A DNA stretch of 62,971 nucleotides from Candidatus Gottesmanbacteria bacterium (GTDB lineage Bacteria; Patescibacteriota; Microgenomatia; UBA10105; UBA927). Position numbers and translations under genes: made by a program. This document shows, one piece after another, positions 16,405 through 44,632 of this stretch; the first letter of the stretch is position 1, and each line of letters begins with the position of its first letter. Under the pieces are notes generated by a model, which had not been told where the DNA came from, did not search any database, and saw only the letters and a program-made list of their open reading frames with translations. The stretch is taken from positions 1-62,971 of the forward strand of contig JACREN010000007.1 of assembly GCA_016218255.1 (NCBI GenBank), given 5' to 3'.

Positions 16405-16479
16405 GGCGCGTTCGTCTATCGGTTAGGACGTTAGATTCTCAATCTAGCAAGAGGGGTCCGACTCCCCTACGCGCTACCA
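16405..16479 (+). tRNA. tRNA-Glu (anticodon CTC)
   Basis: Acceptor GGCGCGT/ACGCGCT, D-arm TTCGTCTATCGGTTAGGAC, anticodon loop TTCTCAA, T-stem AGGGG/CCCCT, encoded CCA; 75 nt. Confidence 0.95.
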
Positions 16480-31817: not shown

Positions 31818-32005
31818 ATATCTATTCTAGCAGATCCGTCAAACGAAAGCGGCTGGGATAATATCCGTATTTCAGGTATAATAACGGTACTTTGGGAGGT
31901 CGTATAACGGTAGTACTCATCCCTCTGGAGGATGATATCTTGGTCCGAATCCAAGCCTCCCAGCCAACAAGCAGAGTAGCAAATATAAAATATTTTTAAC
32001 TGTTT

Positions 32006-40430: not shown

Positions 40431-41831
40431 TTATTTCGTTTTGAAAATAACGGCGATACCCAATTCGGCAAGTTGTTCTGTACTTGCGGCGCTCGGCGCA
40501 TCCATGACTGATGTAGCCCCTCCAGAAGACGCAGGAAACGCCATGACCTCCCGAATGCTTGGTTCACCCAATATCGTCATAATAAGCCTGTCAATTCCCG
40601 GCGCAATCCCCCCATGAGGAGGCACTCCATAGCTAAACGCGGTAAGCATGTGATCAAATTGCGACTTTTGCTCTTCGCTAAAACCGATCAATTCAAATAC
40701 CTTGTTTTGGATTTCAGGCTGATGGATACGGATACTGCCACCGCCCACTTCAAATCCGTTCAAAACCAAATCATGCTGAAGACCGCGTACGCGCAAAGGA
40801 TCCGTATCAAGAAGCGGAATATCGTCAGCATGAGGCGCAGTGAACATATGATGAGAAGGGGCAAATCTCGCCTTGCCAGAACCATAGTAAAAATCATCTT
40901 TGGATTGCTCGGTAAAAAGGGGAAAATCTATAGTCCAAGAAAATGCGAGCTCATTGGGATCATTTGTGTCTTTCCGCAGGTCCGGCTTGTCTGTGCCATA
41001 AGTTGCCATTACTTCTTTATGTGGCAATCGCGGCCACGGAGATTGCGATATATATTTTTGGGGAAATAATTCCGCAACCATTCGCGCAAACATGTCTTCT
41101 GTCAGTTGCATTATGTCTTCTTGAGTCACAAAGGACAACTCCATATCAAGCTGTGTAAATTCTCCGTAGGCCCTATCTTTTCTTGGGTCTTCATCGCGGA
41201 AACAACGCGCAATCTGGAAATACCGCTCCAGTCCCGCAACCATCAATAATTGTTTATATTGTTGTGGCGATTGCGGCAGCGCATAAAAATTACCTTTCTG
41301 AAGCCGTGACGGAACAATAAAGTCGCGTGCCCCTTCTGGTGTCGTTTTGGTGAGGATCGGTGTTTCCACTTCTATAAAATCACGCGCAAGCAAAAAATTC
41401 CGAATAAACGCTGCCGCCCGGCTACGCATACGCAAATTTCTATTCATGCGCGGCCGCCGCAGATCAAGATAGCGGAATTTTGACCGTATTTCCTCGTTAA
41501 TATCATACCCATCGGTATCGATGGGAAACGGCAATTCCCGGGCGTGACTCACGATCGTTAATTTTTTGACTTCAATTTCCACTGTGCCGGTAGGAATTTT
41601 TGGATTCACCATGGACGCCGGACGTGACTTTACCAGTCCCACTACTTCCACCACATCCTCTGCGCCCACCTGCTGTTGGTTTGCAATAACGACCATCTGG
41701 ACAATTCCACTCCTATCGCGCAGGTCTAAAAACGTAATTTTTCCGTGATCGCGCCGGGTATTCACCCAGCCAGCAAGCAACACTTCCTGACCTATTGCAT
41801 CAATTGTTTCTATCGCAAGAGTTCGTTTCAT
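40431..41831 (-). CDS. aspS: Aspartate--tRNA ligase, short GAD-less form, probably non-discriminating
   Basis: RRDHG, LPQSPQQYKQ, FRDED and PPHGGIAPGIDR motifs; start MKRTL downstream of TTGTCA-17-TACAAT. Confidence 0.95.
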   Translation of the reverse strand: MKRTLAIETIDAIGQEVLLAGWVNTRRDHGKITFLDLRDRSGIVQMVVIANQQQVGAEDVVEVVGLVKSRPASMVNPKIPTGTVEIEVKKLTIVSHARELPFPIDTDGYDINEEIRSKFRYLDLRRPRMNRNLRMRSRAAAFIRNFLLARDFIEVETPILTKTTPEGARDFIVPSRLQKGNFYALPQSPQQYKQLLMVAGLERYFQIARCFRDEDPRKDRAYGEFTQLDMELSFVTQEDIMQLTEDMFARMVAELFPQKYISQSPWPRLPHKEVMATYGTDKPDLRKDTNDPNELAFSWTIDFPLFTEQSKDDFYYGSGKARFAPSHHMFTAPHADDIPLLDTDPLRVRGLQHDLVLNGFEVGGGSIRIHQPEIQNKVFELIGFSEEQKSQFDHMLTAFSYGVPPHGGIAPGIDRLIMTILGEPSIREVMAFPASSGGATSVMDAPSAASTEQLAELGIAVIFKTK

Positions 41832-41844
41832 GAGTCTTTCTGCC

Positions 41845-41894
41845 ATTGTACGGTGATTTGCAATTCTTGACAAGGAGATTTTGTCTGTTAAAAT
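41845..41894. promoter_or_regulatory. Back-to-back promoters sharing one -35 (CTTGACAAG)
   Basis: Minus: TTGTCA(41873-41868)-17-TACAAT(41850-41845). Plus: TTGACA(41867-41872)-16-TAAAAT(41889-41894) with extended TG. Confidence 0.75.
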
Positions 41895-41907
41895 ATCTTC
41901 TATACCT

Positions 41908-41985
41908 ATGACAAGCGCTACCTGGCACCTTCGCGTCTTTTTTATTACCCTCCGAAACAAGGGAGGACGTGTGGCGGGAGCATAA
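41908..41985 (+). CDS. Putative 25-aa leader peptide MTSATWHLRVFFITLRNKGGRVAGA
   Basis: First ATG after the plus-strand promoter; spans attenuator segments 1 and 2. Confidence 0.45.
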   Translation: MTSATWHLRVFFITLRNKGGRVAGA

Positions 41986-42041
41986 AAAAAGAAATTATTT
42001 CAAACCCAACACGAACCTCCCAAGGAAAGGGAGGTTTTTTT
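41948..42041 (+). promoter_or_regulatory. Putative transcription attenuator (1:2, 2:3, 3:4 helices)
   Basis: CCTCC/GGAGG (41949-41966); antiterminator GGGAGG-A-CGTGT-GG (41961-41974) with CC-A-ACACG-AA-CCTCCC (42006-42021); terminator AACCTCCC/GGGAGGTT plus T7 (42014-42041). Confidence 0.6.
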
Positions 42042-42057
42042 GATAAAAAAAGAAACT

Positions 42058-42264
42058 ATGACCATAGAATATGATCCAACTGAAACACTGAGAAAAAATT
42101 CCGGAGAAGGAGCCGGGGGGGGTGGAGATGGCCCTATTGGAGAAGACTTATACGAAGGCCCATACAGGGTTCTCCGTGAAGGCGAAGAGGTGGCGCTAGA
42201 AGATGTTTCTCAGAATACAGTCACGCGCGAGCCAATGGTGCCAATCCGTAAATATGGAAAATAA
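42058..42264 (+). CDS. Acidic Gly-rich 68-aa hypothetical protein
   Basis: ATG 17 nt after the terminator; no SD; no family recognised. Confidence 0.5.
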   Translation: MTIEYDPTETLRKNSGEGAGGGGDGPIGEDLYEGPYRVLREGEEVALEDVSQNTVTREPMVPIRKYGK

Positions 42265-42483
42265 ATGAGCGAAGCTTTGCCCGATGCACATTGACAAGTT
42301 AATTTTTGGGTGGAAGAAGAGGATGTCACATCTGACCTGGCGCCTTCCTCTTCCACCCAAATCTTTGGGAGGAAAAATTCAAAAGGAGAAAAGAAAAAAA
42401 TGAACAAAGGACCCCCTAAAAAAATTAAATAATAATACAATCAGAAGGAAATTTGAAAATCCAAAAAACTCAAGAGGACAAAA

Positions 42484-42657
42484 ATGAACACTGGTTACGA
42501 TGTTGACCTGCCGGAAGAAGGAGATGTTTGTTCTTGCTGTGTCGCGCCTGCAGCGGCTAAAATCAGCGGTGTGCCACATTGTGGATTCCACGCTGATCAA
42601 GAATTTGAAGACTGGCGGAAATATTTACCCAGCAAACCCGCACCTGTCGTCGCCTAA
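42484..42657 (+). CDS. 57-aa putative zinc-finger microprotein (missed by the ORF track)
   Basis: MNTGYDVDLPEEGDVCSCCVAPAAAKISGVPHCGFHADQEFEDWRKYLPSKPAPVVA; GAGGA SD upstream; CxxC...CxxH. Confidence 0.65.
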   Translation: MNTGYDVDLPEEGDVCSCCVAPAAAKISGVPHCGFHADQEFEDWRKYLPSKPAPVVA

Positions 42658-42769
42658 ACGCGCTTAGCAAACGAAACACCGTTCGATTATCGCTTTGCGC
42701 GATAGCAACATCTCCACAGAGACCCAGCACCAGCTGTCGCTGGGTCTCTCCCTTTTGGGCATCCAGAGA

Positions 42770-42797
42770 ATTTTTTTGCGAAACTTCGCAAAAAAAT
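42770..42797. terminator. Bidirectional terminator-like palindrome
   Basis: ATTTTTTTGCGA-aact-TCGCAAAAAAAT, 12-bp perfect stem. Confidence 0.65.
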
Positions 42798-42982
42798 GTA
42801 TTTTCTTTCCTCCGATTCTCCCAAAAAAACAACACACCACCTGCCTGCCTATCGCAGCAGTTAATAATATTATTCAGAATATATCGTTAACCGTTGCGCT
42901 TTACAGGCAGGTTGAGAGAAGCAAAACACAAGATCCCCGTATTTTATGGCTCGAGAGCGCCAGACCAATGCGGGGATTTTGG

Positions 42983-44632
42983 TTAGACACGTATATCCTT
43001 TATCTTTAACTGCAATTTGCGGTTTCCGTTCCAGGTATTCATATCAATCGAATATGCAATATCAACCGGCTTATCCGGTGTAAACTTGCCATATAATTCT
43101 CCTAAACCAAAGGCAATTGCGTCAATCGTTAATGACTGAATACGTAATTTAAGGTGTTTTTTATCCTTACCCACAAGACGCACGTCACCAACCACAACCC
43201 CGCGCGTCGCAAACACCGGTTCTGCGTTACCGAATCCGAACGGCTCAAAACCGCGGATCTGTTGCCATAGCGCCTCTGTCGCTGTTTCAAGCGGAATTTC
43301 CAAATCTATACGCAGCAACCGTGTTAGTTTTTCTTCATCCAATTCTTTATCCGCCAGATTCTCGAGTCTATCCTGCAGCGCAGTCAAATGTTTCGTTTCC
43401 ACAGTAAACCCCGCTGCCATCGGATGACCGCCAACATCTATCAAAATATCACTACAGGTTTTGATCGCCTCAACGATGTTAAATCCTGCAACAGACCTGG
43501 CTGATGCTTTTGAGACAACTTCCCCTTTAGATACCACAATAGCCGGTCGGTAATACTCTTCAACCAGCTTACCCGCCACAAGACCAATGACCCCTTGATT
43601 ATATGACTCGTGGGAAAGAAAAATAAGTTTATGCGAATGAATAGAAGGCGAACGGGAAGTAAGGAAGTTTTTTGCATGAAGTGTCGTATCAACGGTAAGC
43701 TGTTGGCGCTCCCGATTGGTCATTCCTAATTTTTGTGCCAACAAATCAGCGCGGTCACGCTGCTTTGTACACAAAAGCCGAAGCGCGTCCAACGCATGTT
43801 CTATCCGCCCCATGGCGTTTAATCGTGGTGCTATCATATGAGAAATGTCATATGTGCCCACAGTCCCCTTCGTTAATCCAGCATCCGCCATGAGCGCTTC
43901 CAGGCCAACCCGTTTCGTTTCGTTTATCGCCGCCAATCCGAACCGCGCTATTGACCGATTCGCGCCCACGAGCGGTACCATATCGGCAATCGTTCCAATA
44001 GCAGCAAGAGAAAGAAGCTCCATGGAGAACGCTACGGGCAACTTATGATTCATAGCACGCAGAAGTTCTTTTGCTAAAAACCAACTTACCCCTGCGCCGC
44101 ACAGAGAAGTCGTGTGAACGACCGTGCAGTCGGGAAGCAATGCAGGCTTGACGTGGTGATCTGTAACAATAACCTCTATTCCTAATGTCTTGGCGTATAC
44201 AACCTTCTCCCTTGCAGTTATTCCGTGGTCGACCGTAATAATAAGGGTCGGATTATAAAGCTCCTTCACCGTGTCTATTCCTTTCACAGATAATCCATAC
44301 CCCTCATCCACCCGATGAGGAATATATGGCATGACGCGAGCACCAAGCTGATTCAGTGTCTCCCACATGACCGCACCGGCAGTAATCCCATCAGCGTCGT
44401 AATCCGAATACACTACGATAGATTCCTTTGTTTCTATTGCTTTTTGGATTCGTTTGATCGCTTTTGCAAGAGACGTTGTTTCAATATTTACGTCACGGGG
44501 GGTAAGTACTGCAGGATCCGGCGGATTAAGAAAACATGAGATATCCTTCTTCCCAATGATTCCTCTGTTTTTTAACAACATCGACACCAGGTCATCAGTT
44601 TTGCCTTTGTGAATAATTTCCCATTTCTTCAT
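42983..44632 (-). CDS. recJ: ssDNA exonuclease RecJ
   Basis: DYDADG, TVDHG, TDHH, TIADMVPL, RLNAMGR and GGHPMAAG motifs. Confidence 0.97.
   Translation of the reverse strand: MKKWEIIHKGKTDDLVSMLLKNRGIIGKKDISCFLNPPDPAVLTPRDVNIETTSLAKAIKRIQKAIETKESIVVYSDYDADGITAGAVMWETLNQLGARVMPYIPHRVDEGYGLSVKGIDTVKELYNPTLIITVDHGITAREKVVYAKTLGIEVIVTDHHVKPALLPDCTVVHTTSLCGAGVSWFLAKELLRAMNHKLPVAFSMELLSLAAIGTIADMVPLVGANRSIARFGLAAINETKRVGLEALMADAGLTKGTVGTYDISHMIAPRLNAMGRIEHALDALRLLCTKQRDRADLLAQKLGMTNRERQQLTVDTTLHAKNFLTSRSPSIHSHKLIFLSHESYNQGVIGLVAGKLVEEYYRPAIVVSKGEVVSKASARSVAGFNIVEAIKTCSDILIDVGGHPMAAGFTVETKHLTALQDRLENLADKELDEEKLTRLLRIDLEIPLETATEALWQQIRGFEPFGFGNAEPVFATRGVVVGDVRLVGKDKKHLKLRIQSLTIDAIAFGLGELYGKFTPDKPVDIAYSIDMNTWNGNRKLQLKIKDIRV

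Follow-up and report, generated by a model that had tools for sequence, protein, structure and literature searches.

A Putative Leader-Peptide Attenuator Gating a Small Operon Between aspS and recJ in Gottesmanbacteria

We analyzed a 62,971-nt stretch of DNA from a Candidatus Gottesmanbacteria bacterium (GCA_016218255.1, contig JACREN010000007.1, forward strand, 1-62,971), referred to here as the window, and focused on the gap between its aspS and recJ genes. Our analysis suggests that a ribosome-mediated (leader-peptide) transcription attenuator at this locus controls a small operon made up of orf74, a second hairpin with a mini-ORF (open reading frame), and orf57; we put the probability of this reading at roughly three in four. 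An initial annotation of the window had already proposed a leader-peptide attenuator with alternative 1:2, 2:3, and 3:4 helices at this place, and that proposal is now backed by conservation of the leader ORF, by covariation, and by folding energies. It had also called the locus its best candidate for an undescribed system, which holds for the family but not for the mechanism: the family is new and lies outside Rfam, and the mechanism is classical.

Leader elements and competing folds

The leader begins with a plus-strand promoter, TTGACA-16-TGtTAAAAT (41867..41894), which has 11/12 matches plus a TG extension and was the top promoter-like site in a scan of 40500-44500. Its position predicts a transcript start near 41901, about 6-7 nt ahead of the ATG of the leader ORF. 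This ORF (41908..41985, plus strand) consists of 25 codons and a TAA at 41983-41985 and reads MTSATWHLRVFFITLRNKGGRVAGA. Codons 4-25 fold into P1, a 65-nt imperfect hairpin (41917..41981, plus strand, -25.3 kcal/mol) that would serve as anti-antiterminator. The 5' arm of P1 spans 41917-41951 and the 3' arm 41960-41981; in the minimum free energy (MFE) fold, 41933-39 and 41948-51 pair with 41960-70, and 41917-28 pairs with 41971-81. The initial annotation had placed the trap for segment 2 in CCTCC at 41949-41953. Segment 2 is indeed sequestered and CCTCC is included in the 5' arm, but the trap is larger and comprises the whole of P1.

Segment 2, the 5' strand of the antiterminator, has the sequence GGGAGG-A-CGTGT-GGC-GGG (41960..41979, plus strand), and segment 3, which can pair with either segment 2 or segment 4, has the sequence CCC-A-ACACG-AA-CCTCCC (42004..42021, plus strand). 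The antiterminator joins GGGAGG at 41961-66 to CCTCCC at 42016-21, CGTGT at 41968-72 to ACACG at 42009-13, and GGG at 41976-78 to CCC at 42005-07. The duplex has a predicted energy of -21.8 kcal/mol, versus -13.8 kcal/mol for the terminator, and a z value of -5.9 against shuffles; the same pairing test applied to four other terminators in the window gave z values of -2.7 to +0.6. The intrinsic terminator itself, AACCTCCC / loop AAGGAAA / GGGAGGTT, occupies about 42013-42041 on the plus strand, with a 9-pair stem at 42013-42037 and a run of seven T at 42035-42041. Promoter, 25-codon ORF, strong terminator with seven T, and the competing GGGAGG/CCTCCC, CGTGT/ACACG, and GG/CC pairings had all been called in the initial annotation, and each is present. 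The region 41901-42045 as a whole folds at -40.1 kcal/mol (z = -2.4). The terminator 3' arm contains a GGAGG located 5 nt ahead of a TTG at 42040, and this GGAGG, part of segment 4, may double as the ribosome-binding site for that TTG.

We propose that these elements would work as follows. The strong promoter would launch an RNA in which only about 6-7 nt precede the AUG. Were the leader left untranslated, P1 would trap segment 2 and the 3:4 terminator would form; were it translated smoothly to the stop codon, the ribosome would cover segment 2 and the terminator would form again. In both states transcription would end at the T-run (42035-42041). A ribosome that lags before it has passed the conserved I-[NT]-L-R block, about two thirds of the way through the ORF, would melt the 5' arm of P1 and free segment 2, which could then pair with segment 3 before segment 4 has been made and so let RNA polymerase read through. 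Read-through would leave the GGAGG of segment 4 single-stranded and possibly available as a ribosome-binding site. In this scheme the operon would be OFF after complete reading of the leader and ON while the ribosome trails behind, as in the trp, leu, and phe attenuators. Here we infer translation of the ORF as well as the kinetics of folding.

We collected relatives of the leader from Gottesmanbacteria and other Microgenomates-type Patescibacteria by four routes. Two of them started from AspRS, through its relatives in species genomes and through exact-protein look-ups of the closer ones; the other two were a pattern scan of metagenomes and relatives of orf57. With the window copy, the 22 further sequences make up the 23 leaders analyzed (21 non-redundant in all). 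The metagenome pattern demanded a CGTGTGG...CCTCCC...GGGAGG core, which biases that subset toward conserved sequences; 11 of its 57 matches were true and the others were unrelated CCTCCC terminators. The covarying members stem from the synteny-based and protein-based routes, not from the metagenome pattern. The same DNA pattern had four matches in viral contigs, none of them a true homologue. A covariance model, R1, built on 11 sequences (alignment A3) and applied to the fetched loci, picked out divergent copies just upstream of aspS and on the opposite strand (L003, L085, L004, L080, L078, and L077) and also found L148-L151 and L152-L155. We left out L151 and L142, which are cut by contig ends, and L155, which duplicates L154. 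Wherever the flanks are known, the leaders occupy the recJ-aspS gap; on two contigs the sequence ends too soon to show the flanks, and L151 has four genes separating its leader from aspS.

In 23/23 leaders, a stretch close to the ORF end complements the 5' arm of the terminator together with about 10 nt ahead of that arm. The initial annotation had suggested comparing the two conformers and looking in the aspS-recJ gap of related genomes for covariation and a leader ORF, and both of the latter were found there. As for the conformers, the 2:3 antiterminator (-16.6 to -27.6 kcal/mol) was stronger than the terminator (-9.4 to -14.4 kcal/mol) in all 23, these energies being thermodynamic and not kinetic, and its z values against shuffles ranged from -3.4 to -7.6. 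None of the sequence-based outcomes that the initial annotation had named as refuting its proposal was observed. We counted covariation in a 16-sequence model alignment (A5), where 87% of antiterminator cells were paired and 8 of 14 pairs had double-sided changes. This level was reached by 0 of 500 shuffles, and slid controls gave at most two such pairs. For the terminator, 99% of cells were paired, with compensatory changes in 4/7 pairs; the T-run was found in all leader sequences and is interrupted in L148 and L152.

Segment 3 (A5 columns 124-130) pairs and covaries with both segment 2 and segment 4. Three-way changes of segments 2/3/4 are seen in L085 (GCGCGG / CCCCGC / GCGGGG) and in L152 (ACGGGU / UCCCGC / GCGGGA), and the upstream half of the antiterminator reads UUUGGU/ACCAAA in L149, GGUUUA/UAAACC in L004, and UGUUAG/CUAACA in L154. 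Every leader has a P1-type hairpin that traps segment 2, with a median z of -2.1 and p<0.05 against dinucleotide shuffles in 15/20. The arms of P1 vary freely among leaders, with no conserved unpaired core. In several loci segment 4 lies 5-9 nt ahead of a start codon.

An ATG-initiated ORF of 19-32 codons, ending at or just after segment 2, was present in 23/23 leaders. We measured its geometry in 20 of them, 19 with a recognizable promoter. The ORF started 6-26 nt past the -10 element and ended -19 to +12 nt relative to the 3' end of segment 2, and its stop codon lay 10-21 nt ahead of segment 3 (63 nt in L080), a position from which a terminating ribosome would mask segment 2 according to the stall map described below. 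The -35 element CTTGACAAG and an A/T-rich -10 element were kept in 19/20 tabulated leaders. The probability of a comparable ORF in a shuffled leader was 0.11. Indels within the ORF are multiples of 3, whereas those past the stop codon are not.

Within Gottesmanbacteria the leader peptides share the ending L-R-x3-4-G-R-V-[VA]-x-x. The stretch GGTCG[TC]GTGG over segment 2 is read in another frame in L003 and L085, yet the ORF still stops there. Because the frame differs in these two leaders, we attribute the "GRV" tail to an RNA constraint of segment 2 and not to an arrest peptide; an arrest peptide "GRVV" was ruled out by the same frame shifts. Judged by these alignments, the conserved trait is where translation ends, not the sequence of the peptide.

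Over the leader region we obtained no match at gathering score to Rfam leader families (Phe_leader RF01859, Leu_leader, Trp_leader, His_leader, and Thr_leader), T-box models, or riboswitch models. Phe_leader scored 20.7 bits against a gathering score of 55 (E = 1.5) and matched the terminator only. Membership in that family was rejected, the sub-threshold match being terminator similarity alone.

Ribosome position and the candidate signal

To map the effect of a stalled ribosome, we masked -15 to +12 around the A site at each codon and folded the transcript to just before segment 4. For A-site positions within the first two thirds of the ORF, the antiterminator formed, and stalls at any codon between 2 and about 14 had this outcome. 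Once the A site had reached the last 8-11 codons or the stop codon, the terminator arm was free. The boundary between the two outcomes coincides with the conserved I-[NT]-L-R block. In the window copy with no ribosome, P1 beat the antiterminator and termination is predicted.

The stall-competent part of the leaders has a distinctive composition. In counts that treat related sequences as independent, Ile makes up 20.8% of its residues across the family, 2.8-fold over the proteins of the window, Leu likewise makes up 20.8%, 2.1-fold over background, and Asn is enriched 3.1-fold. The Ile codons are ATT 37 : ATC 1 : ATA 1, against a background of 590 : 339 : 344 (46% ATT), and the last Ile lies 14-21 nt ahead of segment 2 in 16 of the 17 Ile-bearing leaders. 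The distant member L077 has 11 Leu in 27 residues. These features are compatible with a signal of slow decoding, of Ile (ATT) and Leu family-wide and of Phe-Phe-Ile in the window copy, in which case the leader would be a sensor of charged-tRNA shortage. We consider this signal plausible, at somewhat less than even odds. Sensing of Asn or Asp, tied to the neighboring aspS, was rejected: Asn has no fixed position and does not occur in L001, and Asp shows depletion.

Two more specific triggers named in the initial annotation did not extend beyond the window copy. The Phe11-Phe12 pair is found only there, and relatives carry LF, LL, NL, or II at its place. The R16-N17-K18 macrolide-arrest motif is similarly confined; relatives carry RNG, RTE, RVW, RYA, and others at that position, and the frame over the region differs in L003 and L085.

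The main alternative to an Ile/Leu decoding signal keeps the same device and changes what it responds to, namely general translation stress or a ribosome-targeting antibiotic, as in attenuators of the bmrB-bmrCD, mef/mel, or vmlR type. Such attenuators have been published (PMC4191407 and PMC4335068), and a signal of this kind would suit a window copy that lacks a codon run and carries R-N-K; it would also suit the formation of the antiterminator upon a stall at any codon from 2 to about 14. It sits poorly with the relatives, in which R-x-K is not kept at that position and two members, L003 and L085, read the C-terminal region in another frame, so that there is no conserved arrest peptide. It also leaves the excess of Ile and Leu at stall-competent codons without an explanation. 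The combination of a conserved arrest motif and resistance cargo that marks macrolide +X+ and erm/cat-type leaders was not found among our leaders and cargo, and the cargo has no resistance-type domain. We consider a stress or antibiotic signal unlikely, although it remains the strongest competitor of slow Ile/Leu decoding.

Several observations weigh against a leader-peptide attenuator responding to charged-tRNA shortage. In 13/18 relatives the antiterminator is already the MFE structure before segment 4 is made, even when ribosome-free, and for this reason the ribosome-free state of these relatives hangs on folding kinetics. The window leader has no run of one codon, with one Ile, two Leu, and two Phe, and the relatedness of the sequences counted tempers the family-wide Ile and Leu enrichment. 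With a very short 5' untranslated region that lacks a clear Shine-Dalgarno sequence, translation has to be assumed to be leaderless-like. The cargo has no tie to an amino-acid pathway and varies by clade, and so offers no evident connection from signal to response. Finally, the sequencing runs listed for the locus were four of groundwater DNA, two of them containing the sequence, and none of RNA, and the start of the transcript, its termination at 42041, and read-through are predictions from sequence.

The gated operon and its surroundings

The initial annotation had proposed that the attenuator controls small unannotated ORFs, and the downstream genes support this: when we compared 14 cargo proteins with Pfam and PHROGs, nothing scored above threshold, and none had a resistance-type domain. 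The promoter scan gave no promoter-like site between the terminator and the cargo. The first cargo gene, orf74 (42040..42264, plus strand), encodes 74 aa when read from TTG 42040 and 68 aa when read from ATG 42058. The first of these, 5 nt past the terminator GGAGG, may be the start codon in use; gene callers chose ATG 42058, which has no Shine-Dalgarno sequence. The gene is an orphan: a word-based protein search with orf74 matched only the query, and we saw only weak similarity to the cargo of L081. orf74 is missing at this position in L001, L152, and L103, where the hairpin block described below stands directly behind the terminator, and we therefore regard orf74 as an insertion into the operon. 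The first gene past the terminator varies by clade, related genes being found only in L081 and L085, and in L148 and L150.

Behind orf74 lies a second conserved element (42288..42375, plus strand), composed of GCACATTGACAA, a 16-bp hairpin at 42306-42361, and TTTGGGAGG. UUUGGGAGG stands behind the hairpin in the conserved block, and the hairpin arms have compensatory changes in L001, L103, L131, L152, L153, and L154. A TTGACA at 42292 was tried as a second promoter and rejected; it is conserved, but no homologue has a usable -10 element. The element is followed by a mini-ORF, MNKGPPKKIK (42400..42432, plus strand), with a strong Shine-Dalgarno sequence, AAGGAG, ahead of it. In relatives the mini-ORF reads MNTGPP-stop (L001 and L152) or MDP-stop (L153). 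Pro-Pro before a stop codon is a known slow spot for ribosomes, and the hairpin together with the Pro-Pro mini-ORF may form a second translational checkpoint ahead of orf57.

A homologue search marked orf57 (42484..42657, plus strand), a small protein with a CxxC...CxxH pattern, as the conserved distal cargo of the clade. A word-based search matched only the query, and an exhaustive HMMER search returned 8 small-protein relatives of 69-84 aa along with one match inside a 1788-aa protein. In the alignment of the relatives C16, C19, C33, and W44 are invariant and H36 is mostly kept, and orf57 has no Pfam family. We looked up the loci of three relatives, and in all three the gene is preceded by the same leader and hairpin cassette; one again lies between aspS and recJ, and the other two are on contigs too short for flanks. 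By this pattern of sequence conservation, orf57 is a genuine small-protein family. A sequence scan placed the end of the operon at 42718..42797 (plus strand), where a hairpin at 42718-42749 is followed by TCCCTTTT and a palindromic hairpin at 42770-42797; in L152 a GAGACCCAGC...GCTGGGTCTC hairpin likewise stands behind the orf57 relative. Separately, R1 gave a weak full-length match at 42768-42911 on the minus strand (26.5 bits, E 0.0024), in a stem-loop-rich stretch between the operon end and recJ, which is probably terminator similarity.

It could be argued that the leader is a stand-alone small gene making an RNA of about 135 nt, a 25-aa peptide, or both, with incidental pairings and independently expressed downstream ORFs. 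A strong promoter and a strong terminator, a cargo that differs by clade, and the precedent of trans-acting small RNAs and peptides derived from attenuators (PMC7298713) would all be in keeping with such a gene. Incidental pairings would not be expected to show the three-way covariation of segments 2, 3, and 4 or to outweigh the terminator in 23/23 leaders. Nor would independent expression fit the missing promoter-like site ahead of the cargo or the start codon that several loci have 5-9 nt past segment 4, and a functional peptide is hard to reconcile with one that is poorly conserved and frame-shifted in two lineages. We judge a stand-alone gene very improbable. Less probable still is a ribosome-independent riboregulator in which P1 binds a ligand or protein and the ORF is fortuitous: P1 is long, irregular, and significantly stable, but no Rfam model, T-box and riboswitch models included, matched, no unpaired core is conserved, the P1 arms change freely, and the start codon, frame, and stop position are kept in 23/23.

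The surroundings of the attenuator operon are as follows. aspS lies on the minus strand with its 5' side at 41831/41846 (ATG 41831), recJ, also on the minus strand, ends at 42983, and the 1.1-kb gap between them contains plus-strand features only. The best protein matches of the window AspRS are from Gottesmanbacteria, at 78-82% identity. The gene order cca-recJ-aspS-dacB is common in the group, with a recJ-aspS gap of 27 nt to 1.9 kb. A divergent aspS promoter, TTGTCA-17-TACAAT (41845..41873, minus strand), has 10/12 matches. The -35 element of the leader, CTTGACAAG, is near-palindromic, and its minus-strand reading is the -35 hexamer of the aspS promoter. This sequence arrangement suggests that the leader and aspS promoters, with one common -35 element, may exclude each other. 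The same layout with aspS occurs in L081 and L001; L082 has it too, with another gene in the divergent position.

Among relatives, the recJ-aspS gap is a hot spot for insertions. The gap of L082 (1588-3310) holds a toxin-antitoxin-like DUF433/DUF5615 pair, that of L153 (1085-1779) a toxin-antitoxin-like nucleotidyltransferase/HEPN pair, and the gaps of L006 and L012 are also among those bearing insertions; other inserts are DUF5678 with an Asp-protease-like gene, or relA/spoT. A called 39-aa ORF at 2134-2253 of L082 resembles an antisense translation of the recJ 3' end (of L103, L131, and L142) and lies about 600 nt away from recJ; it is possibly a duplicated recJ end left by the DUF433/DUF5615 insertion. 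Across the whole window, the only matches at the Rfam gathering threshold were two tRNAs (Glu at 16405 and Gln at 31893), and no RNase P RNA was found at that threshold.

Relation to known attenuators

Leader-peptide attenuation is known mainly from Proteobacteria and a few Gram-positive bacteria, in operons for amino-acid biosynthesis and for aminoacyl-tRNA synthetases. As a lineage, Patescibacteria are generally held to lack amino-acid biosynthesis. A full-text literature search returned no paper linking leader-peptide attenuation to Patescibacteria or the candidate phyla radiation. What the relatives appear to preserve, with covariation, is trp-type logic in uncultivated Patescibacteria that controls only small unannotated proteins.

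Putting the pieces together, we tentatively envisage a conserved sensor of starvation or translation pace, located beside aspS, that would gate an exchange slot for orphan microproteins, with a second checkpoint and the CxxC...CxxH protein behind it. The operon would then answer a lack of charged Ile, Leu, or Phe tRNA with microproteins, a picture that we regard as more doubtful than the attenuator itself or the decoding signal. If charged-tRNA shortage were the signal, the cargo would be a candidate starvation response of host-dependent ultra-small bacteria and not a means of tuning biosynthesis. The cassette may also give annotators a handle on genuinely expressed microproteins such as the orf57 family.

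Among published systems, the inhibitor-responsive, ribosome-mediated attenuators bmrB-bmrCD of B. subtilis (PMC4191407) and mef(E)/mel (PMC4335068) resemble the window copy in having a leader ORF without an amino-acid codon run and in that stalling in the leader decides between terminator and antiterminator. They control transporters or resistance genes, whereas the window cassette has neither such cargo nor a conserved arrest motif. Unlike leuL, ilvL, ivbL, pheL, and trpL, the enterobacterial leaders of operons for branched-chain and aromatic amino acids, the window copy has no run of regulatory codons and nearly no 5' untranslated region, its cargo consists of orphan small proteins instead of biosynthetic enzymes, and the sequences are unrelated. 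In architecture, however, the locus closely follows these same enterobacterial leaders. It shares with them a promoter-proximal short ORF, helices that alternate as 1:2, 2:3, and 3:4, a stop codon placed to let the terminating ribosome mask segment 2, and an intrinsic terminator before the first gene, as well as a hydrophobic leader peptide with a G-rich "GR(V)" tail set by segment 2.

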